Assembly: GCA_038062875.1 (NCBI GenBank)
Contig: JBBTWF010000008.1
Location: forward strand, 1-63,150
Length of the DNA: 63,150 nt
Reading direction: 5' to 3'
Source: Patescibacteria group bacterium
Lineage (GTDB): Bacteria > Patescibacteriota > Minisyncoccia > UBA6257 > UBA9933
The notes under the pieces: model-generated
What the model saw: the letters and a program-made list of their open reading frames with translations, nothing else
Databases searched by the model: none
What the model was told of the DNA's origin: nothing
In this document: positions 21,903-36,943 of the stretch, in pieces
Layout of the letters: each line of letters starts with the position of its first letter
Position numbering within the stretch: position 1 is the first letter of the stretch
Translations under genes and position numbers: made by a program

Positions 21903-21972
21903 TCCACATAATTACACAATAGTATTATAATATTTATTATAAGAAATTGCCAAAAATAATACAATTTAAAAA

Positions 21973-23514
21973 ATGACAAAAAAATCTTTATTTCTAATTT
22001 CGTCTTTTTTGGCCGGTTTTTCTTTAATGACAGTAGAACTAATTTCAACAAGAATATTGGCTCCTTATGTAGGCGCTTCAATTTATACTTGGACGTCCGT
22101 TATCGGTGTGATTCTATTGGGATTATCCGTTGGCAATTATTTAGGCGGATATCTAATTGATAAATATCGGTCATTAAAAACACTATTTAGTTTTTTTATT
22201 CTGTCTTCGCTTTTTACGGCCGCTATCCCCATATTGACGACTCAAGCTCAGTTTTTTGTCTTTCTTGATTTGTTATTGCCTATTGTAATTATATTGATAT
22301 CTATAATATTATTTTTTCTCCCGGCTGTTTTTATAGGTACGCTTTATCCTTCTATCCTTAAATTTTATTCCGAAGACGTCGGGACGATTGGATTAAAATC
22401 CGGACAATTATCTTCCTTATGGTCTATCGGCAGTATTGTTGGTACTTTTTTAACTGGTTTTTATTTTATAGGACATATCGGAAACAATACCACGATATTT
22501 TTTATATCTGCCGTCCTTTTTATTAATGGATTGTTTTTTTATCGCCCAAAAATTAAAAATTTAATTATTTTAATTGTTATTTCAGCGACAATAATTTATT
22601 CTCCACAATTAATCAATAAGCAAAATAATGTTATTTTTAATCACGAAAGTAATTATTACACCATTCGCGTTGTTGACGGCGTTCATAATATTTTTGGCAA
22701 TATTAGAGTGTTATTTTTGGACTTTGACGCACATAGCGCGGAAGGATTAGACGGCCAACAACTTAATACTTATCCGGAAATTTATCCGGTTTTTTCGGTT
22801 CTCAAATCAAACATCCATAATATTTTAACCATTGGCGGCGGTTCATACTTAATAGCTAAAAATTTCTCCGATTTTTATAAAAATTCCAAAATAACGGTTG
22901 TTGAAATCGACCCTGCTGTTACAAAAACCGCCGAAGAATTTTTTAATTTAAAATCTTATCCTATCCAAACCGTTATTTCGGACGGCCGAATTTTTCTTCA
23001 AAAAAATAATCAAAAATACGACCTAATATTTTCAGACGCTTATAACTCTTTTGTTTCAATCCCTTGGCATCTTGCAACTAAAGAATTTAACGATTTAGCC
23101 AAAAGTCATCTCACCGACGGTGGAATTTACGCCGTTAATTTTACCTCGGCGTTTTATGGCAAAAATTCCGCTTTTTTCCGAAGTATGCTGTCAACTTTTA
23201 AAAAAACATTTGAAAATTATCAAATATTTTCTTTTGGCGAAGTTTTTCCAACTGACCCGCAAAATATAATATTAGTTGGCGTTAATTCCAATGAACAAAT
23301 TGACCCGCTTGAATTAAGAGAAAAAATTATGGCTTTAAAAAATGGTGAACTCTTATCATCTAAATTAGTTATTAAAAAGCCGCTTGATGACAACGCGCTT
23401 GTTTTAACCGATAATTTCGCGCCAATAGAAAAATTAATGACGCCCTTAATTAATAATTATTTCTCGCGTTATGCCGAGTTTTACTATTCTTTTTTAAAAA
23501 ATCAAAAAATCTGA
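21973..23514 (+). CDS. Fused membrane domain plus spermidine-synthase-like (polyamine aminopropyltransferase fold) protein
   Basis: About 7 N-terminal TM helices, then a class I MTase/spermidine-synthase-like block (ILTIGGGSY...VVEIDPAV...DLIFSDAY). Confidence 0.7.
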   Translation: MTKKSLFLISSFLAGFSLMTVELISTRILAPYVGASIYTWTSVIGVILLGLSVGNYLGGYLIDKYRSLKTLFSFFILSSLFTAAIPILTTQAQFFVFLDLLLPIVIILISIILFFLPAVFIGTLYPSILKFYSEDVGTIGLKSGQLSSLWSIGSIVGTFLTGFYFIGHIGNNTTIFFISAVLFINGLFFYRPKIKNLIILIVISATIIYSPQLINKQNNVIFNHESNYYTIRVVDGVHNIFGNIRVLFLDFDAHSAEGLDGQQLNTYPEIYPVFSVLKSNIHNILTIGGGSYLIAKNFSDFYKNSKITVVEIDPAVTKTAEEFFNLKSYPIQTVISDGRIFLQKNNQKYDLIFSDAYNSFVSIPWHLATKEFNDLAKSHLTDGGIYAVNFTSAFYGKNSAFFRSMLSTFKKTFENYQIFSFGEVFPTDPQNIILVGVNSNEQIDPLELREKIMALKNGELLSSKLVIKKPLDDNALVLTDNFAPIEKLMTPLINNYFSRYAEFYYSFLKNQKI

Positions 23515-23526
23515 GAATTATCCACA

Positions 23527-23554
23527 TTGTTTTGAATATTAAATAATGTATAAT
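23527..23554 (+). promoter_or_regulatory. Candidate promoter of the secretion-like operon, abutted by a perfect DnaA-box 9-mer
   Basis: TTGTTT (23527-23532), a 16-nt spacer, TATAAT (23549-23554). The ATG lies 9 nt downstream with no SD. TTATCCACA is at 23518-23526. Confidence 0.4.
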
Positions 23555-23563
23555 AAATAATAT

Positions 23564-24403
23564 ATGAAAGCCCTAAAAATCGCGGCGATGATTTTGGTTA
23601 TCAGCGCCGGATTACTCGGTTCTTATTGGATTATTAAAGACGCAAAAAAAGCCGACAGCGAAACTGCGGGTTTTTCTTTGGAAGACGCGATTAAACCAGG
23701 TGGCACGCTTTTTAAGTACATAGAAAAAGCGGCTCAAGATATTCAAGGAGCGGTTCCGAATAATAACGCGACTTCTTCCATAAATACCGATGACTCTTCT
23801 AATCTCACCGAAATGATTGCCAAAGTCATCGCTAATAAAGTTATAGAACAAAATAAAAACGGCTTAACCAAGACCGAAACCGGCGAACAGAAACTCGCGG
23901 CGCCGAACCAAGAAGTTATTATCCAAGAATTGACTAGGCAACTCTCTAATTTAGATTCTAATTTACTTAACCCAAATCAACCAATTAACGAAAACGACTT
24001 AAATATCTCCCAGGATAATTCTCAAGAAGCGCAAATCAAATATATCGAGAAGATTTCAAAAATCCATCAAAATTATTTTTGGGGGTTTAATAAAGATTTT
24101 TTAGCAGTATTATCCGATGCTTTTGAAAGAAATGATACTGTGCCAGCTAACCAATTAGCCAATATTTACAAAAATACATCCGATGACTTTTTAAATTTAA
24201 CTGTGCCTTCGGACTGGCTAGAAATCCATAAAAGATTAATTTCTTATTTTCAAACCTCGGAATTTGTTTTACGGGCAGTTGCCAATTATTCCAATGATCC
24301 GGTAAAGGCTCTAATGGCGTTGGATGTTATTGACCATCTTTTAATTGACGGCAAAACCAATCGGGAATTGTTTAATCAAAAAATTAAAGAATTAGAGTTA
24401 TGA
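23564..24403 (+). CDS. Operon gene 1: membrane-anchored helical protein, unknown function
   Basis: N-terminal TM helix. I recognise no motif. Its stop overlaps the next start (ATGA). Confidence 0.7.
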   Translation: MKALKIAAMILVISAGLLGSYWIIKDAKKADSETAGFSLEDAIKPGGTLFKYIEKAAQDIQGAVPNNNATSSINTDDSSNLTEMIAKVIANKVIEQNKNGLTKTETGEQKLAAPNQEVIIQELTRQLSNLDSNLLNPNQPINENDLNISQDNSQEAQIKYIEKISKIHQNYFWGFNKDFLAVLSDAFERNDTVPANQLANIYKNTSDDFLNLTVPSDWLEIHKRLISYFQTSEFVLRAVANYSNDPVKALMALDVIDHLLIDGKTNRELFNQKIKELEL

Positions 24404-25878
24404 AAAAAATTGTTTTAATTCTTATAATCGGTATTCTTATTTTTAATTTCCCTGGGATTTCTATCCGGCCAACTAAAGCTATACTCTCCCTAGTTCCTGT
24501 TGATATCGCGAATTTGGTTTGGGACATAGCAAACCGTGCCTGGACTTGGTTTAAAGGTAATTGGCAACACATGATGAGAGATCTAATTGTCAGGCGGATT
24601 GTGGATGCGATGGCTGACGATGTTATCCAATGGATTCAAGGAGGCGGGGAACCGGGATTTGTCACTGATTTTGGTGGCTTTATGGAAGACGCTTTTCAAG
24701 CCGGGGTCGGCGATGTTGCCAAAGAATTAAATATGGCTTGGCTTTGTAGCCCGTTTAAAGCCCAACTTCAACTTTCGGTTAATTATTTGCCGGTGCAAAG
24801 ATTTTCTCAACGGGTTGAGTGCACGCTTGACGACATTGTCGCCAATATAAATGATTTTTACGCGAATTTTGAAAACGGCGGCTGGATCGCTTACAACGAA
24901 AGCTGGAAACCACAGAATAATTTTTATGGCGCGATGCTGATGGCGCACGACGAAATGTTGATTCGTGGCAGCCAAGAACAAGAAGCGGCCAAAAATGAGG
25001 CCCTGGCTGGCGCTGGATTTCTTTCGCAAAAAAGATGCGAAACCGCTGCTAATTATATTGACAGAACAACCTGCGAATCGGTTGAAAGCGGAACCTGCGC
25101 CAAAGACAGCGAGGGCGATTGGTGTTCGGCAAATGATATAAAAATTATTACTCCTGGCGACACTATTGGCGAAGTAATAGCTAAGACCGCGATAAAAGAT
25201 TTTGATTACATAGACAATGTTCAATCCTATGTTGCCGCTATTGTGAATGCCATTATTAATCGGCTCTTCAGCGAAGGACTTGCCTTAATGAAAGACAGTA
25301 CTTCTCCAGGCGGCACTTCTTATGATTACGTAAGTCTTGGCTACGGCGATGTTGCTCAACAAGATTTAGAAAACCAAAAACAACAAATGAATAGTGAATA
25401 CAAAAAATTCATTCAAGAAAAACAATACATCCTTAATGCCAAAAATCAATCGCTGTCGTATAATCAACAAGCTCTTCAAACGCTTCAATATATTAAAAAC
25501 AATTGCGCGAGCTGCCAGCCAGTGGTTACTGACGCGGAAATCAATAATGTTCAATCAGAGGTTAATCGCTTGCAAAACGAAGTAAATGAGCTACGGGCAA
25601 TAATTAATAAAATTAATGGCTGGATAGCTGAAATTGATAATATGTCTTTGGATAATCGCGATAGAGAGATGGCGATTGTTATTCAGCATTATGATGAATT
25701 TACAAATGAATACGCCGCAGAGATTAATCAAGATATTGCGCTTGGCAAAAAAAGAGAAGCGGCTGACAGCGAAGCCCAAAGCAAACAAACCGAATTAACC
25801 AACGCCCAGAATCGATTAAATTCCTGCAAGACGATGAATTCCTGCACAATTCCAACAGCCACCTCAACGCAACCATAA
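24400..25878 (+). CDS. Operon gene 2: secreted or anchored Cys-rich protein with a C-terminal coiled-coil, unknown function
   Basis: N-terminal hydrophobic segment, at least 10 Cys, and a long Q/N/E-rich coiled-coil. Confidence 0.7.
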   Translation: MKKIVLILIIGILIFNFPGISIRPTKAILSLVPVDIANLVWDIANRAWTWFKGNWQHMMRDLIVRRIVDAMADDVIQWIQGGGEPGFVTDFGGFMEDAFQAGVGDVAKELNMAWLCSPFKAQLQLSVNYLPVQRFSQRVECTLDDIVANINDFYANFENGGWIAYNESWKPQNNFYGAMLMAHDEMLIRGSQEQEAAKNEALAGAGFLSQKRCETAANYIDRTTCESVESGTCAKDSEGDWCSANDIKIITPGDTIGEVIAKTAIKDFDYIDNVQSYVAAIVNAIINRLFSEGLALMKDSTSPGGTSYDYVSLGYGDVAQQDLENQKQQMNSEYKKFIQEKQYILNAKNQSLSYNQQALQTLQYIKNNCASCQPVVTDAEINNVQSEVNRLQNEVNELRAIINKINGWIAEIDNMSLDNRDREMAIVIQHYDEFTNEYAAEINQDIALGKKREAADSEAQSKQTELTNAQNRLNSCKTMNSCTIPTATSTQP

Positions 25879-25923
25879 TAACCAAAATGAAATCCCAACG
25901 GAATAAAAAAATAATATAAATAT

Positions 25924-27912
25924 ATGAGTGTACTAACAGGGCTCACCAGTGGAGTTATTGGCGCTATTGTATTGGGGATAACCTATATAGTCGGAAAAAT
26001 AGGCCAAGTTCTTATGACGCTGGCTGCTTCGCTAATTGATATAGCCCTAGAAGTAAATAAATTAATCCTGAATAGCCCCATAGTCACTGAAGGATGGCGG
26101 ATAGTTCTTGATCTCGCTAATTTGGGTTTTGTTTTAGCGATTATCGTCATTGCTTTTGCCACAATTCTTCGCTTAGAAAGTTATGCGATGAAACAGACGC
26201 TTTGGAAGTTAATTGTGGCGGCACTTTTGGTGAATTTCAGTTTGGTGATTGCTGGAGCCTTTATAAGCAGCTCTGATACCGTTACCGCTCTTTTCAGCGA
26301 TCAATTCAAGCAAGTGGACCTATCAACAAAATTAACGGGCCTATTGGAAGTTCAGTCGTTAAACAATCCCTTTGACCAAAACACTGGTAGTCTAGAAAAA
26401 TATGGTATGTGGTACTCAAGGCAAGTACTTGGACCTGTAGCGGACTGGATTTACGAAGTATCCAGCGGTGACTCAAAAGCGCCAGCTTCCCCGACGCTTG
26501 AATCAACTTTGCCATTAATTGTTACCGGAATTTTTGCGGTTATCTTTACTCTTTTATCGGCATTTGTAATGCTGGCAATAGGAATAATGTTGTTTATCCG
26601 CTATGTTTATCTCGGAGTTCTTTTAATTTTATCTCCGATTGTCTGGCTTCTTTGGATTTTCCCTAATACCCAACACCTTTGGCAAAAATGGTGGAATAGT
26701 TTTTTAAGATGGGTATTTTTCGCGCCATTGTCATTATTCTTTCTTTATTTAGCAATATTTGCCTTAGAAAAACCGCCAGCGACTCAACAACAAATTATCA
26801 ACCAACAACAACAAGAATTTGTAAAAAATTTATCGGAAAAACAAAAAGGAGTTGAAATTCCTCTCGCGAAATACGGCAATATGATAATTTTGCTCGGCTT
26901 ATTAATGGGTGGCTTAATTGCGGCGAATTCTTTAAGCATCACCGGTTCGAAAACCGCCATGGGCGCGGCGCAGGGCGCGGGCAAAATGTTCGGGGGTTGG
27001 GTTGGGAAGAAAGGGGTTGCGCTTGGAACTAGGCCACTTAGAGGCGAATGGGGAAGGAAGGTTACCGAAGGAATGCAAAAATTTGGAGCTGGGAGAGGAG
27101 CGCTCGGCAGATTAATGACTGCGCCGGTTAGACATTTAGGAACAGCTGTTAGCGGCGTTGGTGTGGGACAAGGAGAAAAATTGATAAAAAACGCTGGAGA
27201 ACGTTTAAATAAACGTTTTATTAATGATAAAAACTTGGCAAACGCCTGGGACACTTTAAGCCGCGATGAAAAAATCGCCGGTGCTAAAAGATTTATGAAA
27301 AATAAGACGATGAATTTATTAAGCGACGAACAGTTAAATCGTGATATTGGCAATGAGGGAACAAAGAAATATTTTGAAAGACACGGGGAAAAGAAATCAT
27401 ACGAAGATTTTGAAAAAGCGGCTATGCGCAATACATCAATGGTAAACAGTAAAAGCGCTACTCAGCGAGGAATTGAAGCAGAAAAATTTTTCAGGTCATC
27501 TTATTCTGTTAAAGATTTTGAAACGGTTAGAACAAAATCAATGTATGAAGACGCTACAGCAGCCCAAAATATCAAAATAGTTCTTGAAACGCATCCCGGC
27601 GCCCTTGGCAAAATAATGCCGAAACTTGACGGAAAAGATTTTGACAAACTGCACGAACTTATAAAAGAATCTGTTATGACTAAAGATTCGTCCGGAAACG
27701 TCGTAATCCCAACAGGGCAAACAATCGCCGGGCAAAAAGTTGGCGTGGCTAAAAATATAAAAGATATTACCGCTGAAGAAACAGAAAGGTATTTGGGAGA
27801 AGCCAAAAAAATAGACGCAAAACTTGGAGCTATCCATAAATCATTCTCAAAAAATTTAGGCAATCGCGTAATCGGTTCTTCCTGGGAATATATTCCGCCC
27901 GCCACAACATAA
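25924..27912 (+). CDS. Operon gene 3: polytopic membrane protein, VirB6/TrbL-like, with a soluble C-terminal extension of about 300 aa
   Basis: About 7-8 TM helices in the first 350 aa, a Gly-rich linker and a basic C-terminal domain. Its size and position next to VirB3/VirB4-like genes support the call. Confidence 0.55.
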   Translation: MSVLTGLTSGVIGAIVLGITYIVGKIGQVLMTLAASLIDIALEVNKLILNSPIVTEGWRIVLDLANLGFVLAIIVIAFATILRLESYAMKQTLWKLIVAALLVNFSLVIAGAFISSSDTVTALFSDQFKQVDLSTKLTGLLEVQSLNNPFDQNTGSLEKYGMWYSRQVLGPVADWIYEVSSGDSKAPASPTLESTLPLIVTGIFAVIFTLLSAFVMLAIGIMLFIRYVYLGVLLILSPIVWLLWIFPNTQHLWQKWWNSFLRWVFFAPLSLFFLYLAIFALEKPPATQQQIINQQQQEFVKNLSEKQKGVEIPLAKYGNMIILLGLLMGGLIAANSLSITGSKTAMGAAQGAGKMFGGWVGKKGVALGTRPLRGEWGRKVTEGMQKFGAGRGALGRLMTAPVRHLGTAVSGVGVGQGEKLIKNAGERLNKRFINDKNLANAWDTLSRDEKIAGAKRFMKNKTMNLLSDEQLNRDIGNEGTKKYFERHGEKKSYEDFEKAAMRNTSMVNSKSATQRGIEAEKFFRSSYSVKDFETVRTKSMYEDATAAQNIKIVLETHPGALGKIMPKLDGKDFDKLHELIKESVMTKDSSGNVVIPTGQTIAGQKVGVAKNIKDITAEETERYLGEAKKIDAKLGAIHKSFSKNLGNRVIGSSWEYIPPATT

Positions 27913-27931
27913 ATAACAAATCAAATAATTT

Positions 27932-28927
27932 ATGCTTAAAATCACTCGACAACAAGCTCTACAAAGATGGGATATATTGCCCGACAATCTTAAAGAGGCG
28001 TTATTCTCTGAACAAAACGCCGATGTTTTGTGGCGCGCCTGCGAAGCACAACATTTATCTGAAGATAAAATTCGGGTAGTGGCGACTTTAGCTGGCGACG
28101 TGATTATGGGTTTTATACACCCCGAAGATTTGGCGCAGGAAATCAAAAATACGCTCGGCATAAACTCTGAAATAGCCGCTTCAATCAGCCGCGAAATTGA
28201 CCGGAAAATTTTCAGCCCGATTAAAAACGATTTGGAAAAAGTTTATTCGCCCATAACAGAGGAAAGGGAATGGAAAAAAGAGGAAAGAGAAAAAGAAATC
28301 GTTGATTTAAGAACTGAAATAAAAAAACCTGAAGAAATTAGGGAAGAAAAAATTTTACCGGAAATTATTCCAATTATTCTTCCAAAAATTTCCGAAGTTC
28401 AACCTCCGAAAATTGAAAAAACATCCGAAGAAATTAAACCTCAAAAAATAGAAATACCTTCAACATTTCCAATAATTCCAATCCTCGAAGAAGACCAACC
28501 AAAAATCATCCACGAAGAGAAAAAAATCACTCCGCTGACTGACACAAGAAAACGTTCTCTTGCCGGACTGTTTGGTTTTCTTAAAAAAGAGGAGGTGGAG
28601 AAGGGGAAAGAGAAAAGTGCGCCGCCAGTCAAAATTAAATTAGAGACAAAAGAATCTTTTGCCGAAATGGCGCTTCCACAAAAATCCGAAATCGCCAAAA
28701 CAGAAATTCCTAAACCGCGAGTCGTTCATTACAGCGATTTGCGAACGCCACTCTCGCCGTTCGGCGCAACACAAAAGGAAAAAGAGGAGAAGAAAGAGAA
28801 AAACAAGGAAATAAAACCGCCGGAGAATTTACCGATTACCGAATCTCATAAAATTGAATCCAATGTTGAAAACGAAGAAGATGTAATCGATTTGAGAACG
28901 TTTGAGAAATTTAAAAAACCACAATAA
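27932..28927 (+). CDS. Operon gene 4: soluble protein with a folded N-domain of about 110 aa and an E/K/P-rich low-complexity tail
   Basis: No TM helix and no recognisable motif. Its stop overlaps the next start. Confidence 0.65.
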   Translation: MLKITRQQALQRWDILPDNLKEALFSEQNADVLWRACEAQHLSEDKIRVVATLAGDVIMGFIHPEDLAQEIKNTLGINSEIAASISREIDRKIFSPIKNDLEKVYSPITEEREWKKEEREKEIVDLRTEIKKPEEIREEKILPEIIPIILPKISEVQPPKIEKTSEEIKPQKIEIPSTFPIIPILEEDQPKIIHEEKKITPLTDTRKRSLAGLFGFLKKEEVEKGKEKSAPPVKIKLETKESFAEMALPQKSEIAKTEIPKPRVVHYSDLRTPLSPFGATQKEKEEKKEKNKEIKPPENLPITESHKIESNVENEEDVIDLRTFEKFKKPQ

Positions 28928-29559
28928 TGCAATTCCAGATTCCCCAATTCATTGATGTAGAAAACAAAATCGTCGGGCCTTTGAGTTTAAGGCAGTTTTT
29001 GTATTTGGCCGGCGCCGGGGCGATTAGTTTTATGCTTTTTTTCGTTCTCCAAATGTGGCTGTGGTTTTTAGTCACGGTTTTTTTAACAATAATAGCCCTA
29101 GCTTTAGCTCTTATAAAATATAACGGCCAGCCGTTGCCTAAAATTCTTTGGCTCGCTTTAGGTTTTCTTTGGAAACCCCGCCTTTATCTATGGCAAAGAG
29201 AAATAGAGGAAAAAATCGTTAAAATTCCGCAAATGCCGAAATTTTCTTCGCTTCCAAAAACCCCTCAAAGAATTTCAATGCCCTACTCGCCGATTAACCA
29301 ACCAACACCAACTCTAAAAGAAAAATGGGATTCAACGGAAAGTGTTATTTCTAAAAGGGAAAAATTAAAAACATTTTTTTCTGAAATGCCGAACGTAAAA
29401 AAACTCTGGCAAGACCTTCTGACAACAAAAAATCCGGTCCCGCAAAGAGAGAAAACCGCAAAAACGCCTTTCTGGGGCAAAAAACCGACTGAACGATTCC
29501 AGGTTTTCAGAAAAATTACTGGGGAAAAAGATATAGCGAGAAGAATAGATTACAGATAA
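28927..29559 (+). CDS. Operon gene 5: PrgI-family (VirB3-like) membrane protein
   Basis: The N-terminus MQFQIPQFIDVENKIVGPLSLRQFLYL followed by two TM helices is the PrgI/VirB3-like pattern of Gram-positive T4SSs. Confidence 0.65.
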   Translation: MQFQIPQFIDVENKIVGPLSLRQFLYLAGAGAISFMLFFVLQMWLWFLVTVFLTIIALALALIKYNGQPLPKILWLALGFLWKPRLYLWQREIEEKIVKIPQMPKFSSLPKTPQRISMPYSPINQPTPTLKEKWDSTESVISKREKLKTFFSEMPNVKKLWQDLLTTKNPVPQREKTAKTPFWGKKPTERFQVFRKITGEKDIARRIDYR

Positions 29560-29583
29560 ATTAAAAAAGGATATAATAAATTT

Positions 29584-30231
29584 ATGGCGAAAAAAGAAAA
29601 CATTTCCACCCAACAATTCGTTGATATTGAAGATATACGCGATGGAGTGATTATTCTGAAAAACGGCTCTTTGCGACGGGTTTTAATGGTTGCCGGAATC
29701 AACTTTGAACTCAAGTCCGAAGACGAACAAAATATCACTATAAGTACATATCAAAATTTCTTAAACACGTTGAATTTCTCCGTTCAATTTGTAATTCATT
29801 CCCGGAAACTTAACATTGACGCTTATCTTGAAAAATTGTCGGAGCGAAAAAACCAAGAAAATAACGAACTGCTAAAAAACCAAATCTCTGAATATGTGGA
29901 ATTTATTCGTTCGTTTGTGGAGCAAAACGCCGTAATGGCAAAGACGTTTTTCACTGTCGTGCCTTATGATCCGATTATAATTCCAACCGGCGGCAAAAAA
30001 TTCATAGAAATGTTCAAATTCGGAAAAAAAATAACGGCTATGCAAACCGAACAAACTCTGGAACAAAAAATTCAACAACTCGACCACCTGACCGACCAAG
30101 TTATCAACGGCCTTACTCAAATCGGCCTTCGGGTGGTGCCGCTCGATAATGAAGAACTGATAGAATTATTTTACAATCTTTACAATCCAAGCGTGACGGA
30201 GAAAAAAGATTTAAAAATCGCGCATACATAA
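29584..30231 (+). CDS. Operon gene 6: VirB4-family N-terminal domain encoded as a separate ORF
   Basis: TQQFVDIEDIRDGVIILKNGSLRRVLMVAGINFELKSEDEQ resembles the N-terminus of Gram-positive VirB4 homologues (Tn916 Orf16 / PrgJ type). Confidence 0.6.
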   Translation: MAKKENISTQQFVDIEDIRDGVIILKNGSLRRVLMVAGINFELKSEDEQNITISTYQNFLNTLNFSVQFVIHSRKLNIDAYLEKLSERKNQENNELLKNQISEYVEFIRSFVEQNAVMAKTFFTVVPYDPIIIPTGGKKFIEMFKFGKKITAMQTEQTLEQKIQQLDHLTDQVINGLTQIGLRVVPLDNEELIELFYNLYNPSVTEKKDLKIAHT

Positions 30232-30254
30232 TCACTATTAAATTTCAATAATAT

Positions 30255-31994
30255 ATGAACATAAAAATCCAACAACCTTATACGGCAAGCGAGAAAGACG
30301 TAAAAAACGTTATCGCGCCCGCGGCTATGGAAGTTAATCCTAGTCATCTAAAGCTTGGCGATAAATTCGCGAAAACAATTTTTATTTTTACTTACCCCCG
30401 ATACTTGGCAACCAGTTGGTTCAATTCAATTATTAATCTGCCAAATCTTTTAGATATTTCTATTTTTATCCATCCGGTTGATACCAGTTTGGCCTTGCGA
30501 AATCTCCGCAAAAAAACCGCCCAGATTGAAGCCCAACTAATGGAACGGCAAGAAAAAGGTCTAGTCAGGGACCCGCTTTTGGAAACCGCTTTTCAAGACA
30601 TTGAGGCGCTGCGCGACACGCTCCAACAATCTCAAGAACGACTATTCAACGCGGGAATCTACATTACAATTTACGGCGAAACCATCGAAGAACTTAATAA
30701 ACTAGAAGAAAGCATTAATTCTTTATTTGAAAGCCATTTAGTTTATGTTAAGCCAGCTATTTTCCAGCAATTAGAAGGTGTCCAGTCAACTCTGCCTCTC
30801 GGTCAAGACAAACTTCTTGTTCATACTCCGCTTAATTCCGGACCTGTTTCTTCTTTTTTTCCATTTGTCTCCACTGACCTGACTTCGGACGAAGGGATTC
30901 TTTATGGCATCAACCGCCATAATAATACCCTTGTGATTTTTGACCGCTTTTCTTTAGAAAACGCCAATCAAGTTGTTTTCGCCAAAGCCGGCGCCGGCAA
31001 AAGCTACGCCACTAAAATAGAAATTATTCGCTCTCTGATGATGGGAATTGACGTCTTAATTATTGACCCGGAAAATGAATACCAAAAATTAGCCGAGTCG
31101 GTTGGCGGTAGTTTCTTCAAAATTTCTTTAACTTCTGAAAACCAAATCAATCCTTTTGAAATTCCGATTATTCCCGAAGACGAGGACCCAGCCGATGTTT
31201 TCAAGTCGCATATTCTTAATCTAACCGGCCTGGTTAAATTAATGCTCGGCCAGATTACGCCGGAAGAAGACGCCCTTTTGGATAGAGCGGTTACCGAAAC
31301 ATACGCTTCACGAGACATCACGCCTGAAAAAAAAGATTTTACTCAAGCCCAACCGCCGACCTTGGGGGATTTACAAATTATTTTGGAAAACACCGAGGGC
31401 GGACGAGGATTGGCTCAACGATTGGAAAAATACACACGTGGAAGTTATGCCGGATTCACCAACCAACAAACAAACATTGATATCAAAAATCGTTTGATTG
31501 TTTTTTCAATCCGCGACTTAGAAGAACAACTTAGGCCGATTGCCATGTATATTGTGCTTAATTTTATTTGGAATCTTATTCGGGCTGATTTTAAAAAACG
31601 GGTAATGATTATTGACGAAGCGTGGTGGATGATGAAATATCCGGACAGCGCTTCATTCCTTTTCAGTTTGGCAAAGCGCTGTAGAAAATATTATCTTGGC
31701 CTTACCACAATTACCCAAAATGTTGAGGACTTTTTAGAATCGCCTTATGGACGACCAATTATCACGAACTCCTCTCTCCAATTACTCTTGAAGCAAGCTC
31801 CTGCAACCATAGATCTGATAGCTAAAACATTTAATCTAACGGAAGCGGAAAAACAATTATTATTGGAAGCGGCTGTTGGCGAAGGATTATTTTTCGCCGG
31901 ATTAAAACACGTGGCGATTCAAATCATCGCTTCTTACTTTGAAGACCAAATTATCACGACCAGCCCGGAGCAGTTGTTAGAAATGAAGAAATAA
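30255..31994 (+). CDS. virB4: Operon gene 7: VirB4-family T4SS ATPase (central and C-terminal ATPase part)
   Basis: IAPAAMEV...YPRYL...GW block, Walker A KAGAGKSY, Walker B VMIIDEAWWMM, conserved C-terminal region. Confidence 0.85.
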   Translation: MNIKIQQPYTASEKDVKNVIAPAAMEVNPSHLKLGDKFAKTIFIFTYPRYLATSWFNSIINLPNLLDISIFIHPVDTSLALRNLRKKTAQIEAQLMERQEKGLVRDPLLETAFQDIEALRDTLQQSQERLFNAGIYITIYGETIEELNKLEESINSLFESHLVYVKPAIFQQLEGVQSTLPLGQDKLLVHTPLNSGPVSSFFPFVSTDLTSDEGILYGINRHNNTLVIFDRFSLENANQVVFAKAGAGKSYATKIEIIRSLMMGIDVLIIDPENEYQKLAESVGGSFFKISLTSENQINPFEIPIIPEDEDPADVFKSHILNLTGLVKLMLGQITPEEDALLDRAVTETYASRDITPEKKDFTQAQPPTLGDLQIILENTEGGRGLAQRLEKYTRGSYAGFTNQQTNIDIKNRLIVFSIRDLEEQLRPIAMYIVLNFIWNLIRADFKKRVMIIDEAWWMMKYPDSASFLFSLAKRCRKYYLGLTTITQNVEDFLESPYGRPIITNSSLQLLLKQAPATIDLIAKTFNLTEAEKQLLLEAAVGEGLFFAGLKHVAIQIIASYFEDQIITTSPEQLLEMKK

Positions 31995-32002
31995 AAAAAT
32001 TT

Positions 32003-32383
32003 ATGGATGAAGAGAAAAAAATATCGTTGCCGGAAATAATTCTGATGGTGCTGATTGTCGGCGTAGCCGATATTTTTGGAATAATAGCGGGGTTGGTTGT
32101 CGGGATACCAGCGATCGGACAAATATTAATTATTGTCAGTCTTTTTATTAGTATCATCGTTTGGCTTATTGTCCAATTTTGGCTTATAATGAAGGGGGTA
32201 AATGGCTGGTGGTATGGTGGAGGAAGCTTGGTTGATATTATTTCTGGCGGCAGCCTGCCACTACAGACTCCTACCTTAATAGTCACTATTTTTATTGCCA
32301 ACAATCCCAAGTTAAGCAAGGTGGCTGGAATAGTAAAGGGGAAACCCCCAACTATATTAGCAAAAGGCAATATCGCAAAATGA
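32003..32383 (+). CDS. Operon gene 8: small polytopic membrane protein (126 aa)
   Basis: 3-4 TM helices and a Gly-rich loop. No recognisable motif. Confidence 0.6.
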   Translation: MDEEKKISLPEIILMVLIVGVADIFGIIAGLVVGIPAIGQILIIVSLFISIIVWLIVQFWLIMKGVNGWWYGGGSLVDIISGGSLPLQTPTLIVTIFIANNPKLSKVAGIVKGKPPTILAKGNIAK

Positions 32384-33081
32384 CAAATTTTAAATTAAAA
32401 TTTAAAAATTTTATATTTTACATTGTCATTTTGATTTTTACATTTTTATTTTTACATTTTGCCGTTGCTGCCTCGCCTCAATTTCTAACCTCTTGGCAAT
32501 CTAATAGTTACGTCCCATCTTGGTATCAAGGCAAAATTTTCCCTACTCGCGGATCTTTAATAAATGTTAGTTTTGAAATTATCAACAACGACAAAATCGC
32601 CGATATTTCAAAAAATAAAATCCGTTGGTATATTAACGATAAATTAATAAAAAATGAAAATAACGGTTTGGGGATAAGGTCTTTAAAATTTATCAATGAT
32701 GATTTTCCGGGCGGAGAAATTAGTGTAAAAATCGCGGTTGTTGATTATGCCGCCGAACCGCTGTATAAAATAATCCGAATCCCAGTTGTCTCGCCCGAAG
32801 CCGTGATTGACGCGCCTTACGCCGAACGAAAAATAAATACCGGAAAAAATTTATTCCGCGTTTTTCCATTTTTCTTTAATATCAAAAATTTAAACTCGCT
32901 ATCTTTTGAATGGCAGGCAAACGAACAAACATCTGAGGCCGCTGAAAATCCGCAAGAACTTAATTTAAATATTGACCTTCAAACGCCGTCAAGAACCGTA
33001 ATTAATATTGCGGCAATAATTAAAAATATCTCCAATCAATTGGAATTCGCGAGTAAAAACATTAAACTGGAAGTTAAATAA
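32380..33081 (+). CDS. Operon gene 9: secreted or anchored protein, probably beta-rich
   Basis: N-terminal signal or anchor. Its start overlaps the upstream stop by 4 nt. Confidence 0.6.
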   Translation: MTNFKLKFKNFIFYIVILIFTFLFLHFAVAASPQFLTSWQSNSYVPSWYQGKIFPTRGSLINVSFEIINNDKIADISKNKIRWYINDKLIKNENNGLGIRSLKFINDDFPGGEISVKIAVVDYAAEPLYKIIRIPVVSPEAVIDAPYAERKINTGKNLFRVFPFFFNIKNLNSLSFEWQANEQTSEAAENPQELNLNIDLQTPSRTVINIAAIIKNISNQLEFASKNIKLEVK

Positions 33082-33086
33082 ATCTC

Positions 33087-33911
33087 ATGACCAATAAAAT
33101 AATTTTTATAATTTTACTCTTCGTTCTCTGTTTTTTTAGTTTTAGCGCGGTTTTTGCGGCTAATATTGATTACAAATATCCTTGGAAAGGGGAAACAACT
33201 CCTTCTGGTCTTGTAAATAGAATTTACATCTATGCGTTAAGCGTTGTTGGCGCCGTTGCGATGGGAGTACTGGTTTACGGAGGAATTTTACATACGATTT
33301 CCGCCGGTAATTCCTCAAAACAGCAAGACGCTAAAGAATGGATAACCGGAGCGATTTGGGGGTTGGCACTTTTATTAGGAGCGTATCTGATTCTTTGGAC
33401 GATTAACCCCGATTTGGTAAGTTTAAAGGATCCAGTAATTACTGGTATATTCCCCGGTGGAGGTGGTGGACAATTCAAGGGGGCAGGCACAAGCGGAAGC
33501 TGGGGGCCTACGACGCCTGCGCCAGGAACATTGTCTGACCAGCAAGCCAAATCACAACTTCAGCAAGGAATGGTCAGTTATAAACCCAATGTCAGTTTTG
33601 ACAATATTAAACAAACGACCATTAATGAAGCTAAAGCGTTGAGTTTTGACTTGCAAAATAAAGGAGTGGGCATAGGCAACGAAACAATAACCAGTGGCAC
33701 AGAAGGAACCCATAACGAAGGCACTTACAGCCATGCCAATGGCTATAAGTTTGATTTAAGAATAAATAATGATCTTACAAATTTTATTGAAAAAAATTAT
33801 ACATTAATTGGGACGAGAAGCGATGGTGCTCCTCAATATCAAAATTCAAGAGGCGCTATTTACGCTAAAGAAGGAGACCACTGGGACGTTCTAGTAAGAA
33901 CAGAAGGATGA
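33087..33911 (+). CDS. Operon gene 10: T4SS-pilin-like (TrbC/VirB2-type two-helix) domain fused to a LAS/M15-like zinc peptidase domain
   Basis: Signal peptide. TM1-GGILHTISAGNSSKQQDAKEWI-TM2 is the pilin-like pattern. A Gly-rich linker follows. The C-terminal SHANGYKFD and EGDHW fit the SxHxxGxAxD and ExxH motifs of VanX/VanY-type peptidases. Confidence 0.5.
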   Translation: MTNKIIFIILLFVLCFFSFSAVFAANIDYKYPWKGETTPSGLVNRIYIYALSVVGAVAMGVLVYGGILHTISAGNSSKQQDAKEWITGAIWGLALLLGAYLILWTINPDLVSLKDPVITGIFPGGGGGQFKGAGTSGSWGPTTPAPGTLSDQQAKSQLQQGMVSYKPNVSFDNIKQTTINEAKALSFDLQNKGVGIGNETITSGTEGTHNEGTYSHANGYKFDLRINNDLTNFIEKNYTLIGTRSDGAPQYQNSRGAIYAKEGDHWDVLVRTEG

Positions 33912-35026
33912 AAAAAACAATTATCACAATAGGCGTTATTTTGGGAATTATCGCTATGGGGCTCGGCGTTTATTTCGCTTGGAAAAAATCGCAAGAGATT
34001 TTGACGCCACCTATTTCTGACCAACAACCAATAACTAACAACCAACAACAACTCCCTTCGGCAACTGAAAAACTTAAAGTTTTAAGCGACCAACCGGTTT
34101 TTGATTATTGGACAATAACTACCGGAACTTCCACTAAAATTTTTTACATTAACAAAACCGGTCAAATATTAAAAGTTAATCCGCCAGCTGGCGGAGGAAA
34201 AGATGAAATTATCAGCTCGCAAACAATAAACAATCTTCAACAAGCAAAATCCAGCAATAACGGCGAGCGGATTTTGCTTAAATTAGGCGGCGCTGATTCG
34301 CCTCAATTTAATATTTTCAACGCAACGAATAATATTTGGGAATTGCTACCTTCGGGGATTACGACGGCTGACTTTTCTCCAAGCAATAAAGAAATCGCTT
34401 ATTTAAAAACCAACGGCGACAAAAGCGATTTAATAATAAAAAATTTAACCGCTTCAAAAACCAATAAAATTATTTCAATCGCGCAAAATGACTTTGACTT
34501 AAATTGGCTTACAGACGAAATAATTCTTTTAACCGATAAACCGTCTTTCTATATTGACGACGACATTTGGGCTCTTAATATTAAAAATAAAACCATTAAA
34601 AAAATAACCTCTGGAAGAGGATTATTAACCAATTGGTCGCCCAACGGCGACTCTGGGATAAAATTCTCCGTTGACCAACAAAGAAATTCTTACTTAGAGT
34701 TGATAAATAACGATGGAACGATTCGAGCAAGTTTTGATTTTTCAACACTTCCCGATAAATGCGTTTTTGATTCTTTAAAAATATATTGCGCCGTTCCTCA
34801 AATTAATAATTCTATTCAAAAACCAGCTTTCCCCGATGATTATCTAAAAAGAGCTGTTTATTTCAAGGATATTATTTATAAAATGGACATAGAACAAAAC
34901 ACTTTTGAAATGATTTACGCCAACCCTGAAATAGACATTGACGCCTCTCATTTGTCAATTTCCGACAACCAACTCTTATTTATCAACCGCTATGACAGCA
35001 AACTCTACGAATTAATTCTTGAATAA
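33908..35026 (+). CDS. Operon gene 11: membrane-anchored beta-propeller-like (PD40/TolB-like repeats) protein
   Basis: N-terminal TM helix. FSPSNKEIAYLKTNGDKSDLIIKNL-type repeats. It carries an in-frame PPAGG palindrome. Confidence 0.5.
   Translation: MKKTIITIGVILGIIAMGLGVYFAWKKSQEILTPPISDQQPITNNQQQLPSATEKLKVLSDQPVFDYWTITTGTSTKIFYINKTGQILKVNPPAGGGKDEIISSQTINNLQQAKSSNNGERILLKLGGADSPQFNIFNATNNIWELLPSGITTADFSPSNKEIAYLKTNGDKSDLIIKNLTASKTNKIISIAQNDFDLNWLTDEIILLTDKPSFYIDDDIWALNIKNKTIKKITSGRGLLTNWSPNGDSGIKFSVDQQRNSYLELINNDGTIRASFDFSTLPDKCVFDSLKIYCAVPQINNSIQKPAFPDDYLKRAVYFKDIIYKMDIEQNTFEMIYANPEIDIDASHLSISDNQLLFINRYDSKLYELILE
34181..34194. repeat. Perfect palindrome CCGCCAGCTGGCGG, in frame (NPPAGGG)
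   Basis: Identical to the copy at 13947-13960. Confidence 0.95.
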
Positions 35027-35055: not shown

Positions 35056-35484
35056 TTATATCGGCTTAATCACCACGCGCCGCTCTTTGCCTTCGCCAAC
35101 GCTCTCGGTGCTTATATCCGGACGACCAACCAACTCTATGTGGACTAACCGACGCTCATAAGCGTTCATCGCCGGCAAAGAAACTTCTTCTTTAATGGAA
35201 ACGGCTTTTCTGGCGGCGGCCCGCGCCAATTCTAAAATAATACCTTCGCGTTCGCGCCGATAATTATTCACGTCAACAAAAACAATCCCAAGATTATTTT
35301 TTTTGGCGATTAATTTAACCAAGTGGTCCAAGTCGTTCACGAAAAAAGGCAAAAATCTTTTAAACCCTTCTCCTTCGTTAAGAAAAATCAGAAAACGGCT
35401 GCTTTCCGAATCGTAATTAACGGAAAAATCGGCGAAGCCCATTAGTTCTATAAGTTTTTGGATTATATCTTGTAGTTGCTGCAT
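35056..35484 (-). CDS. jag: Jag-like KH/R3H RNA-binding protein
   Basis: R3H motif (YERRLVHIEL) and its position after yidC. Confidence 0.85.
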   Translation of the reverse strand: MQQLQDIIQKLIELMGFADFSVNYDSESSRFLIFLNEGEGFKRFLPFFVNDLDHLVKLIAKKNNLGIVFVDVNNYRREREGIILELARAAARKAVSIKEEVSLPAMNAYERRLVHIELVGRPDISTESVGEGKERRVVIKPI

Positions 35485-35494
35485 ATTTTTTTAT

Positions 35495-36259
35495 TTATAG
35501 TTTATAGTGTAATTTTTTGTCTATTTCAATTAAATTCTTGTCGCTTGTTTGAAGTTGTTTGTTAATCGCTATTTGTTGGATAACTGAAAAAACCGTTGTT
35601 GTCAGCCAATAAACCCCAACCGCCGAAGGGAGTTTGAATGTATATAAAAAAACAAATGTTAAGATCGGACCCATAAAAACCATCTGCCGGCTCATTTTCT
35701 CCATAGGAGACAACGATTTTTCGACTTCGCCTTTATTTTTATTTTTAACAAGCGATAGTTTGCCTTGAAAATATTGCGCGACGACCGCTAAAATTATAAT
35801 AAAAATATTGCGGACGCTCAAATCAACTATGCCTAAAAAATGAAAATTTAATAAATCCGGCCGAGGGATAAAAGAATACAAAACATCAAATGAGCCGCTG
35901 GAAAGTCCCTTTAAAAAAACTTGGTATAGAGCTATTAGAATAGGCAACTGAACGATGAGTAACAAAAACCCGGAAATTGGGTTAACCTTATGAAGACGGT
36001 AAAGCTCCATCATCTCTTTGGCTTGTTTTTCTTTGTCGTGTTTATGGTTTTGTTGAATTTCCTTTATTTTCGGCGCCAGACGCTGCATAATCGCCTGGTC
36101 TTTAGCTCCCTTATAAAACAAAGGGAATAGAATTAACCGAATTAAAACCGTTAAAATAATAATCGCGATGCCGAGATCGTGGAAAGAAAGATTTTGGTAT
36201 AAAAAAATCAAAGCGTTGAATAACGGCCGGTATAAAATTTCGTGGAATAAATTAGCCAT
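35495..36259 (-). CDS. yidC: Membrane protein insertase YidC (short form)
   Basis: 5-TM YidC/Oxa1 core within the rpmH-rnpA-yidC-jag arrangement. Confidence 0.9.
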   Translation of the reverse strand: MANLFHEILYRPLFNALIFLYQNLSFHDLGIAIIILTVLIRLILFPLFYKGAKDQAIMQRLAPKIKEIQQNHKHDKEKQAKEMMELYRLHKVNPISGFLLLIVQLPILIALYQVFLKGLSSGSFDVLYSFIPRPDLLNFHFLGIVDLSVRNIFIIILAVVAQYFQGKLSLVKNKNKGEVEKSLSPMEKMSRQMVFMGPILTFVFLYTFKLPSAVGVYWLTTTVFSVIQQIAINKQLQTSDKNLIEIDKKLHYKL

Positions 36260-36575
36260 AATATTTTTCTAATTCTTTTTCTAATTCTTTTTTTGTCAGT
36301 TTATTTACAAGCGGCGAAACGATAGTCAGTGTATCTTTTCCGATTTTTAGATGGTACTCTTTTAATCTGATAAAATCAAAAATTATTCTTTTTATTTTAT
36401 TCCGCTTAACGGCGCTTTTATTTACTTTATTGCTTATAATCACGCCGAACCGACTAAATAATAATTTATTTGGCTTGGATTTAATAATAAAATACTTACC
36501 CCGCGCAACCTCGAAAAGATTGGCGCGGGGTTTAGAAAGTCCTTGAATCGGTAAACGATATTTTTTAGACAGCAT
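36252..36575 (-). CDS. rnpA: Ribonuclease P protein component
   Basis: 107-aa basic protein (KKYRLP...) located between rpmH and yidC. Confidence 0.88.
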   Translation of the reverse strand: MLSKKYRLPIQGLSKPRANLFEVARGKYFIIKSKPNKLLFSRFGVIISNKVNKSAVKRNKIKRIIFDFIRLKEYHLKIGKDTLTIVSPLVNKLTKKELEKELEKYYG

Positions 36576-36582
36576 GACAAAT

Positions 36583-36723
36583 TTAAATCCCTACACTAAT
36601 CTTTTTTCTGCCTTTTCGTCGTCTTCTTTTTAAAACGCTTTTTCCTCCGGCAGACCTAGACCTTTTTAAAAATCCATGAGCTCTTCTCCTTTTCCTTTTT
36701 TTAGGTTGATAGGTTGTAGACAT
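36583..36723 (-). CDS. rpmH: 50S ribosomal protein L34 (46 aa; below the ORF-track cutoff)
   Basis: My own translation gives [46 protein letters not shown], which matches the L34 consensus TYQP.KRKR...HGF. Confidence 0.93.
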
Positions 36724-36943
36724 ATAATTTTACTCCTTTTTATTTATAGCTGGGCGTTCGACTCTTTTATTAATTATAATGCGGAATAAATATTAATTCA
36801 AGGGTTTTAATGTAAAAAATTAAAAAGTTCTCCACAGGAAATCAACAGGTTTAAAACTTTTCCCAATTTGACTAGTTTTTTTATCTATATAGAATATAAA
36901 TAGTTTACGCTTTATTTTTTAGAAATTAAAATTTTTTATATTT
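36724..36943. other. Candidate replication origin region (rpmH | dnaA divergent intergenic)
   Basis: Classical rpmH-dnaA junction, where gene orientation switches from minus to plus. It is AT-rich. Only one near-consensus DnaA box is present (TTCTCCACA, 36828-36836). Confidence 0.45.

Follow-up and report, generated by a model that had tools for sequence, protein, structure and literature searches.

Type IV secretion systems of Patescibacteria

Patescibacteria account for a large share of bacterial diversity and apparently live on other cells. Most of their VirB4 proteins were reported to form a clade of their own beside the monoderm MPF-FATA class of type IV secretion systems (T4SSs), with TrsD (an N-terminal VirB4 homolog), PrgI/VirB3, VirB6 and VirB2-like pilins (PF18895/PF04956) encoded near virB4, relaxases being almost absent and coupling-protein homologs mostly distant (Quinonero-Coronel et al. 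2025, PMC12102498). For Paceibacteria, the same report places the locus near dnaA, dnaN, rnpA, ksgA and rpmH, a position for which the authors suggested that gene dosage raises expression. Functional evidence comes from Southlakia epibionticum, where transposon sequencing showed that growth on the host requires the T4SS cluster and its pilin array (Wang et al. 2023, PMC10633639). Type IV pili and the T4SS were found to be separately essential in this organism, and deletion of comEC abolished transformation while growth was unaffected (PMC10633639). A 2025 review described the system as the first T4SS to be essential for its bearer and as the most exciting new arrival in the superfamily (PMC12857230), and a 2026 preprint documented tubes, possibly T4SS pili, at the parasite-host interface together with the uptake of host RNA and VirB4 monophyly (bioRxiv 10.64898/2026.06.21.733656). 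The present work deals with an eleven-gene locus (g1 to g11, positions 23564-35026) within a 63,150-nt stretch of DNA, hereafter the window, from a Patescibacteria group bacterium (assembly GCA_038062875.1, contig JBBTWF010000008.1, positions 1-63,150 of the forward strand). The sequence belongs to a 115.7-kb contig obtained from the 0.1 µm fraction of Hainich groundwater, the organism being a groundwater Candidatus Wolfebacteria.

The characteristic features of the Patescibacteria-clade T4SS are found here together, i.e., TrsD-like and PrgI genes located by virB4, a PF18895 pilin and a chromosomal, relaxase-less siting near dnaA, dnaN, rnpA and ksgA. With high confidence, the locus is hence assigned to the already described chromosomal, relaxase-less T4SS of Patescibacteria, of which it represents an eleven-gene Paceibacteria form. 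The window adds no new kind of system but a clean example of the Paceibacteria version, whereby the unit of conservation comprises eleven genes and not the four or five that are recognisable. New within this work are the eleven-gene conserved module as such, the TolB-like propeller of g11, the Ig-like g9, the swappable head of the pilin and a DnaA box upstream of g1.

Layout of the locus

The eleven open reading frames (ORFs) are all encoded on the plus strand and were assigned as follows, the basis of each assignment being given in brackets:

g1, 23564-24403, plus strand: bitopic membrane protein (hydropathy)
g2, 24400-25878, plus strand: bitopic protein with a Cys-containing ectodomain and a coiled coil (hydropathy, AlphaFold2 model)
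g3, 25924-27912, plus strand: extended, putatively VirB6/TrbL-like polytopic protein (hydropathy, Pfam matches of orthologs)
g4, 27932-28927, plus strand: soluble, E/K/P-rich protein (translation, alignment)
g5, 28927-29559, plus strand: PrgI/VirB3-like protein with two transmembrane helices (Pfam PrgI PF12666)
g6, 29584-30231, plus strand: TrsD-like protein (Pfam TraC_F_IV)
g7, 30255-31994, plus strand: VirB4-family ATPase, 579 amino acids (aa) (Pfam P-loop_TraG and AAA_10, PDB)
g8, 32003-32383, plus strand: small polytopic membrane protein (translation, ortholog alignment)
g9, 32380-33081, plus strand: Ig-like beta-sandwich protein, secreted or anchored (Pfam matches of orthologs, family profile)
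g10, 33087-33911, plus strand: VirB2-type pilin with a C-terminal head (Pfam T4SS_pilin PF18895, AlphaFold2 model)
g11, 33908-35026, plus strand: membrane-anchored TolB-like beta-propeller (family profile against the PDB)

From g1 to g11 the genes are joined by a 4-nt overlap, gaps of 45 and 19 nt, a 1-nt overlap, gaps of 24, 23 and 8 nt, a 4-nt overlap, a gap of 5 nt and a further 4-nt overlap. Scanning the region for promoters and terminators was uninformative in this AT-rich DNA. Hydropathy identified N-terminal hydrophobic anchors or signal peptides on g1, g2, g9, g10 and g11. As to its composition, the locus encodes a membrane core (g3, g5, g6 and g7) together with the VirB2-type pilin g10, and beside these, six conserved proteins, of which g1, g2, g8, g9 and g11 are anchored or carry a signal peptide while g4 is soluble. 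Paralogy among the eleven families, g8 as a cryptic pilin for instance, was considered and rejected, as an all-against-all comparison with hhalign matched only signal peptides and transmembrane helices.

A first-pass annotation, made from the sequence alone, had described eleven co-directional ORFs with these coordinates, overlaps and gaps, and had recognised among them a VirB4 ATPase with Walker A and B motifs, a PrgI/VirB3-like protein, a two-helix T4SS-pilin-like domain and a VirB6/TrbL-like protein with a tail. The layout and the first three assignments were borne out by the analyses reported below. Of the fourth, the topology stood and a part of the orthologs matched TrbL, while g3 itself gave no match. 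For the six or seven proteins to which no motif could be assigned, the descriptions as Cys-rich coiled coil (g2), E/K/P-rich (g4), beta-rich (g9) and propeller (g11) hold, but g6 had to be taken out of this group as it is TrsD-like.

The membrane core

The signature protein and motor of the system is g7. Its translation carries the Walker A motif KAGAGKSY and the Walker B motif IIDEAWW, Pfam assigned P-loop_TraG (E 1.1e-25) as well as AAA_10, and the best match in the PDB was VirB4 from the Firmicute Thermoanaerobacter (4AG5, E 3e-49). The search for g7 homologs was saturated, with all 8000 scored candidates at E ≤ 1e-10, and names were examined for the best 120. Among these 120, which comprise about 580 aa each, all named ones were labelled Wolfebacteria, Paceibacterota or Patescibacteria group, except for one record labelled Spirochaetota, and several were annotated as VirB4 or TraC. 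These names are consistent with g7 being a member of the VirB4 lineage of Patescibacteria.

The membrane partner of VirB4 is g5, which possesses two transmembrane helices and a tail of about 130 aa and matched the Pfam family PrgI (PF12666) with an E value of 7.8e-11 and 42.8 bits, i.e., above the cut-off of 27. Located between the two is g6, which matched positions 22-179 of the 375-position Pfam profile TraC_F_IV (E 5e-5, short of the gathering score), a family also matched by 8 of 26 orthologs. Based on this family relation, g6 is not regarded as an unknown but as TrsD-like: a polypeptide of its own that is akin to the N-terminal part of VirB4/TraC and corresponds to the TrsD component of PMC12102498. 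TraC_F_IV is the sole link of g6 to VirB4, as its profile matched no VirB4 chain in the PDB. The idea that g6 duplicates the N-terminus of g7 was rejected, hhalign having shown no relation between the two. The fourth core protein, g3, shows approximately six to seven transmembrane helices within residues 1-340 and ends in a hydrophilic tail of some 320 aa. Three of its 23 positional orthologs matched the Pfam family TrbL/VirB6 (PF04610, best E 6e-6) and a profile search against the PDB gave nothing meaningful. An assignment of g3 as VirB6 is thus supported through its orthologs only, and its topology fits.

Conservation across Paceibacteria

One genome per species was considered, which gave 80 loci of the Paceibacteria type from metagenome-assembled genomes, whose six-frame ORFs were searched with iterated profiles of the window proteins. 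These loci derive from Wolfe-, Harrison-, Jorgensen-, Azam-, Specht-, Taylor-, Kaiser-, Giovannoni-, Nomura- and Zambryskibacteria, and their VirB4 proteins are 58-93% identical to g7. Almost everywhere the same order recurs: ksgA, g1 to g11, jag-yidC-rnpA on the other strand and dnaA-dnaN. Synteny across genomes had been proposed as a check along with the first-pass annotation, and with the same gene order in 80 independent species-level genomes a chance arrangement is excluded. Among the loci covering the respective position, g7 was present in 100%, g5 in 99%, g6 in 97%, g10 in 95%, g9 in 94%, g11 in 93%, g3 in 91%, g2 and g4 in 83% each, g1 in 74% and g8 in 73%, the latter value having been obtained with an iterated profile. 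The order g5-g6-g7 is retained in 97-99% of the loci, and all eleven genes were found in order in 21 of the 38 loci that span the full region, whereby fast-evolving genes missing from the remainder probably reflect detection limits. In two loci (L070 and L073), extra ORFs of 1,041-1,165 aa were observed between g2 and g3.

The position of the module is equally stable, dnaA being found downstream in 47 of the 51 loci that are long enough to tell. VirB4 and DnaA identities to the window co-vary (Spearman 0.74, n=49), and the median identity is 60% for VirB4 as compared to 43% for DnaA. Towards the nearest relative (L001), identities amount to 93% for VirB4, 86% for DnaA, 81% for g6, 69% for g5, 67% for g9, 61% for g11, 40% for g4 and 34% for g8. 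Most of the predicted surface and membrane-accessory proteins hence evolve faster than the VirB4/TrsD core.

Signs of a mobile element were looked for within 81.5 kb, with Pfam applied to all window ORFs of at least 200 aa, to most of the smaller ones and to the annotated genes 10 kb beyond each end. Neither a relaxase nor a VirD4 coupling protein, VirB11 or an integrase was found there. Direct or inverted repeats that could serve as flanking att sites amounted to short AT-rich matches, none beyond chance, and no break in composition was detected at the locus, its GC content being continuous with the surroundings. Taking together the recurring order and site, the covariation of VirB4 with DnaA and the lack of relaxase, coupling protein, integrase and flanking repeats, the eleven genes are one vertically inherited core module at a fixed chromosomal site and not a mobile element. 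The first-pass annotation had likewise listed no VirD4, relaxase, VirB11, VirB8/9/10, integrase or repeat-bounded island and had described a chromosomal, non-conjugative machine. The tests reported here support this description, which is not new as it had already been published (PMC12102498, PMC10633639).

The pilin and its head domain

The pilin g10 matched the Pfam family T4SS_pilin (PF18895, E 5.7e-8, 33.2 bits, cut-off 26.6), and so did 22 of 25 orthologs. An AlphaFold2 model based on 75 homologs (mean predicted local distance difference test, pLDDT, 84.4) divides the protein into a signal peptide, a two-helix hairpin (residues 39-106, with helices 39-71 and 76-106 at pLDDT 80-96), a disordered Gly-rich linker (residues 115-136) and an alpha/beta head (residues 148-270, pLDDT above 90). 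Within the head, H209, G219 and D223 are invariant in the 75 homologs, while at least 90% of these retain H216, K221, E262, H265, W266 and D267. The resulting pattern is S215-H216-x2-G219-x3-D223 ... E262-x2-H265. Zinc sites of the VanX/VanY type (LAS) are characterised by the motif S-x-H-x2-G-x-A-x-D ... E-x2-H, to which the pattern of the head bears a resemblance, i.e., a likeness and not a proof.

Using the head as a profile, 2,147 clusters were found among 1.84 billion representative proteins, mostly of 260-320 aa and with the domain in C-terminal position. Ten atypical members of this family were inspected, of which six carry an N-terminal T4SS_pilin domain (E ≤ 1e-4) and a seventh matches it weakly, and two proteins of the family combine T4SS_pilin, an SLT lytic transglycosylase and the head in a single chain. 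Among other Paceibacteria, the C-terminal part of the protein in the g10 slot is a VanY domain, an SLT domain or Cys-rich modules, or is lacking altogether, and the length varies from 101 to 615 aa, whereby a head of the window type occupies the slot in only 4 of 63 loci. The pilin of the nearest relative (L001) comprises 143 aa, is headless and ends after the Gly-rich linker. Some Paceibacteria possess two pilin genes in this slot (L026, L053, L066, L076 and other loci). Judged from this distribution, the head is a modular, often exchanged appendage of the pilin, which is described in neither PMC12102498 nor PMC10633639. The SLT fusions as well as the VanY and SLT domains in the same slot of other lineages are indirect pointers to a role of the head at the cell wall, and in this genome it is predicted to be, probably, a metal-dependent cell-wall hydrolase.

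In the solved structure of the F-pilus, both pilin termini lie on the outer face. A head attached to the C-terminus of g10 would hence be displayed on the outside of the structure. From this, a more far-reaching idea can be put forward, which is considered rather unlikely: The single Paceibacteria pilin would be a modular display scaffold with interchangeable heads (His/Asp/Glu, SLT, VanY, Cys-rich or none), swapped between close relatives, so that the filament would bear lineage-specific wall-cutting or wall-binding heads which set the host envelope that can be breached, while the DnaA box before g1 could couple expression to the initiation of replication. If true, such a pilin would be a host-range mechanism that is without counterpart in described T4SSs.

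The accessory proteins

Apart from core and pilin, six families are conserved in the module. A single N-terminal transmembrane helix was identified in g1, whose ectodomain appears helical by eye, and neither Pfam nor the PDB (profile search included) yielded a match. Its neighbour g2 contains ten Cys residues, a conserved helical ectodomain at approximately residues 60-300 and a C-terminal coiled-coil hairpin (residues 310-478), the latter being the only confident part of the AlphaFold2 model (97 homologs, mean pLDDT 66.8). No sequence match to g2 was obtained in Pfam or the PDB, and Foldseek searches of the PDB returned generic helical bundles only, none at E ≤ 1e-3. The protein diverges fast, its closest homolog being 65% identical as compared to 98% for VirB4. 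Transmembrane helices are absent from g4. About 100 aa at its N-terminus form a conserved helical domain, after which come a P/E/K-rich low-complexity linker and a C-terminal DPYxEP motif that is likewise conserved, and profile searches against Pfam and the PDB gave no match. About three hydrophobic helices, with a conserved Asp in the first of them and a conserved Pro, make up g8, which matched no known family. It evolves very fast, with the 34% identity to the nearest relative having to be seen against 93% for VirB4 of the same organism. A 28-nt inverted repeat (32376-32433, 79% complementary, 2-nt spacer) was noticed across the junction of the g8 stop and the g9 start.

For the two remaining proteins a fold can be suggested. 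Orthologs of g9 matched the Pfam families BiPBP_C (6 of 26), Ig_3, Cadherin-like and PKD, and the family profile matched the Ig-like domains of phage T4 Hoc (E 1.8e-4), which points to g9 being composed of Ig-like beta-sandwich domains. The profile of g11, built from 25 orthologs, matched 12 TolB structures in the PDB (E 4e-9 to 3e-4), and its orthologs gave weak propeller matches in Pfam. The protein starts with an N-terminal transmembrane helix and possesses a conserved Cys pair (C285/C294). According to these profile matches, g11 is TolB-like at the level of the fold only and is not a component of the Tol-Pal system.

Chromosomal surroundings and the DnaA box

The immediate neighbours of the locus are the following:

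19118-19981: ksgA, which in other Paceibacteria is normally next to g1 on the left
20004-21902, minus strand: PG_binding_1/SH3 protein, 632 aa, between ksgA and g1
21973-23514, plus strand: polytopic spermidine-synthase-like protein, 513 aa, 49 nt upstream of g1
35056-38311: jag (R3H), yidC and rnpA (minus strand), then dnaA (plus strand), an origin block which bounds the operon on the right and is not part of the machine

The gene pair at 20004-23514 is inserted between ksgA and g1 and is missing there in most relatives. Its second member, the spermidine-synthase-like gene, may be co-transcribed with the operon, and the PG_binding_1/SH3 gene contains an imperfect internal repeat of 175 nt (20364-20538 and 20661-20835). 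Further genes upstream include rpoC, parA/parB, relA/spoT, topA, dprA and comM, while downstream dnaA is followed by dnaN, a class A penicillin-binding protein, ruvC, pilB and ruvB. In agreement with the first-pass annotation, which had placed the locus about 2 kb from dnaA and dprA, comM and pilB in the same window, dnaA starts 1.9 kb past the end of g11 and all three genes were identified. The 10 kb beyond each end of the window hold rpoB, ftsW, tsaD, lexA, infB and a restriction-modification pair (N6_N4 methyltransferase and HinfI-like endonuclease, L082 15025-17382), the latter located beside lexA, approximately 4-6 kb past the right end. Further candidates for a role in the envelope or in host interaction elsewhere in the window are a PilO-like protein (14705-15220), the PilB ATPase of the type IV pilus (43647-45320), a lamin-tail-domain protein (46547-47050) and a secreted CAP-domain protein (61240-62112). 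ARAGORN reported a tRNA-like gene at 11063-11139 with an undetermined four-base anticodon (ggaa), overlapping the start of an ORF at 11048-11509.

The cumulative GC skew reaches its minimum at 36-38 kb, beside dnaA. Relative to 36576-36943, the operon runs towards dnaA and this minimum, an orientation kept in nearly all loci. If oriC is located between rnpA and dnaA, transcription towards dnaA would place the operon head-on to the leftward replication fork, and under the same assumption jag-yidC-rnpA are co-directional with the fork, unlike the operon. A perfect DnaA box (TTATCCACA, 23518-23526, plus strand) precedes the g1 ATG by 46 nt. It is located in the spacer of 49 nt that separates g1 from the preceding gene, and the same spacer also holds a TATAAT at 23549-23554. 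Four further Paceibacteria loci (L012, L027, L042 and L046) carry DnaA-box-like sites with at most one mismatch at positions -43 to -51, and the regions upstream of g1 contain ten such sites in 9.2 kb (about 1.1 per kb) versus a background of 0.39 per kb. This is suggestive of the DnaA box before g1 being a regulatory site. The window holds five perfect DnaA boxes, none of which resides in the rnpA-dnaA spacer, where only a box with one mismatch was found (36828).

Possible function

It is known that VirB4, VirB3 and VirB6 drive pilus biogenesis independently of a coupling protein. As these components polymerise pilin without one, the minimal activity of the locus would be to build a pilus or stalk. 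The reading favoured here, which is considered reasonably probable, is that of a host-interface apparatus of the kind described. According to the suggested mechanism, PrgI and VirB6 would hold VirB4 at the membrane, where it would extract the pilin and polymerise or position it, yielding a short pilus or stalk across the monoderm envelope. The head, carried on its flexible Gly-rich linker, would cut or bind peptidoglycan, either that of the own wall (the role of VirB1) or that of the host, and the fast-evolving surface proteins g2, g9 and g11 would mediate contact with the host cell. Thus assembled, the apparatus is suggested to move proteins or other macromolecules between symbiont and host, and to serve neither conjugation nor DNA uptake. 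The position by oriC, and possibly the DnaA box before g1, would tie its expression to replication. Confidence in the direction of transport and in the nature of the cargo is much lower than in the host-interface reading as such.

Several points weigh against this reading. Essentiality and pili have been shown or suspected in no groups other than Saccharibacteria and one further cultured lineage, neither of which belongs to Paceibacteria. No substrate, effector or coupling protein was identified within this work, and hence secretion is inferred, as is the transcription of g1 to g11 as a single operon, for which the spacing of the genes is the sole basis. Within the machine itself, g3 gave no Pfam match and in particular none to VirB6, and neither the eleven proteins nor their ortholog profiles matched VirB7, VirB8, VirB9 or VirB10 in Pfam or the PDB. 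With a head of 150 aa attached, g10 may not polymerise, and its hairpin may serve as a membrane anchor only. As to the head, its sequences matched nothing in Pfam and its profile nothing in the PDB, comparison with the VanY-bearing ortholog L078 gave an E value of 0.075 and a probability below 1% (hhalign), and the whole g10 model found no match at E ≤ 1e-3 with Foldseek in the PDB and BFVD. This whole model is dominated by the helical hairpin and thus drew histidine-kinase-like matches. A classification of the head as LAS/M15 (VanX/VanY-type) peptidase was tried and rejected, since the motif fits but no test was significant, and the domain is accordingly not filed in this family.

Among the alternatives, an organelle that is a pilus only survives best, though it is held to be unlikely. 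In this case, the only product of the core would be a filament or stalk of the VirB2 type by which the cell adheres to its host, the Ig-like and propeller proteins would contribute as accessory adhesins, and nothing would be translocated. Known T4SSs require a coupling protein to transfer substrates, whereas their pili form without one, so that its absence fits this idea, as do the pilin kept in 95% of the loci and the fast evolution of the surface proteins. Adhesion is, however, already served by type IV pili, for which pilB and a PilO-like gene are present in the window, and T4SSs which secrete without a coupling protein exist (Ptl, Brucella VirB). Moreover, type IV pili and T4SS are separately essential in Southlakia (PMC10633639).

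Less probable still is an importer, by which host macromolecules (RNA, nucleotides, lipids, proteins) would be taken up to feed a cell poor in biosynthesis. Genomes of the Patescibacteria type lack biosynthetic capacity, and with archaeal Ced and Helicobacter ComB, importing VirB4-based systems are known. VirB4 monophyly and putative T4SS tubes have been tied to the acquisition of host RNA (bioRxiv 10.64898/2026.06.21.733656), but the evidence is purely correlative, and neither a nuclease nor a nucleic-acid-binding component was recognised among the eleven proteins.

The first-pass annotation had named the ComB DNA-uptake system of Helicobacter as the best known analogy and had regarded a role in host contact as equally possible. 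In view of the present evidence the two are unequal, the host-contact apparatus being better supported, and a ComB-like T4SS for natural transformation is regarded as very improbable. What speaks for it is the lack of relaxase and coupling protein and the location of dprA and comM 5-10 kb upstream. Transformation of Southlakia, the only genetically tested patescibacterium, depends on ComEC, and it is the T4SS that is essential while comEC is not, which separates the two functions (PMC10633639, PMC12857230). In addition, homologs of the ComB components VirB7/8/9/10 were not detected in the locus. The proximity of dprA, comM and pilB is no sign of an uptake role as these genes are part of a conserved origin-proximal neighbourhood; dprA, comM and ksgA are ordinary members of it outside the operon, with comM located upstream of ksgA in four related loci. 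Least credible of all is an integrative conjugative element which has lost relaxase, coupling protein and integrase. In its favour, the VirB4 family has its roots in conjugation machinery, and the closest relative with a solved structure stems from a Firmicute. A recent decay is, however, effectively refuted: the eleven genes occupy one chromosomal site in unchanged order in dozens of species, VirB4 exceeds DnaA in conservation and co-varies with it, and att-like repeats and a GC anomaly are lacking. This leaves no more than an ancient acquisition dating back to the root of the group.

The eleven-gene module offers two starting points. The six conserved and uncharacterised families (g1, g2, g4, g8, g9 and g11) are candidates for functions still missing from the system, namely those of VirB8, VirB5, an adhesin and a channel, and the pilin-fused head, which represents an unannotated family of more than 2,000 clusters, is a tractable biochemical entry point.

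Comparison with known systems

The closest counterparts are the Patescibacteria-clade T4SSs and, among them, the Southlakia cluster (SEML1_0005-0019), with which the locus shares VirB4, TrsD-like and PrgI/VirB3 genes that are adjacent and in the same order. Common features further include a VirB6-like protein (putative in the locus) with a large hydrophilic extension, a PF18895 pilin within the cluster, the absence of relaxase and coupling protein from the cluster and the chromosomal position by dnaA, in Paceibacteria also by dnaN, rnpA and ksgA. An exported protein with Ig-like features is found in both, namely SEML1_0005 (PEGA/Ig-like) and g9. The two differ in that Southlakia possesses six short pilins, a separate triple-lysozyme protein and an NTF2 (VirB8-like) protein, whereas the locus encodes a single pilin gene with a fused head and no separate lysozyme, and an NTF2 protein was not detected in it. 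The families g1, g2, g8 and the TolB-like g11 are described in neither PMC12102498 nor PMC10633639. Experimental tests of the function are confined to Southlakia.

With the MPF-FATA systems (pCF10 Prg/Pcf, pIP501 Tra, pGO1 Trs) the locus has in common a VirB4 that is closest to the monoderm one (4AG5), PrgI, TrsD-like and putatively VirB6-like proteins and the absence of the outer-membrane core proteins VirB7/9/10. Unlike these, it is without relaxase, coupling protein (PcfC/VirD4), detectable PrgL/VirB8-like protein and PrgB-type adhesin, it encodes a VirB2-type pilin, which monoderm conjugation systems are without, and it is chromosomal, vertically inherited and not mobile. A particular parallel is given by the two-domain VirB1-like hydrolases (PrgK, TraG of pIP501, CD419/TcpG), as these are anchored proteins encoded in a T4SS operon with domains of the wall-hydrolase type, and relatives of g10 bear SLT and/or VanY domains, some of them SLT together with the window-type head in a single chain. 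The anchor of g10 is, however, a VirB2-type pilin hairpin and not a single transmembrane helix, and its head matched no known hydrolase family in searches by sequence or by the fold of the whole model. Helicobacter ComB resembles the locus in being chromosomal, non-conjugative and without relaxase and coupling protein, but it is a diderm system comprising ComB7/8/9/10 (VirB7-10), none of which was detected in the locus. Seen against these systems, the window locus takes its place as the eleven-gene Paceibacteria form of the Patescibacteria T4SS.

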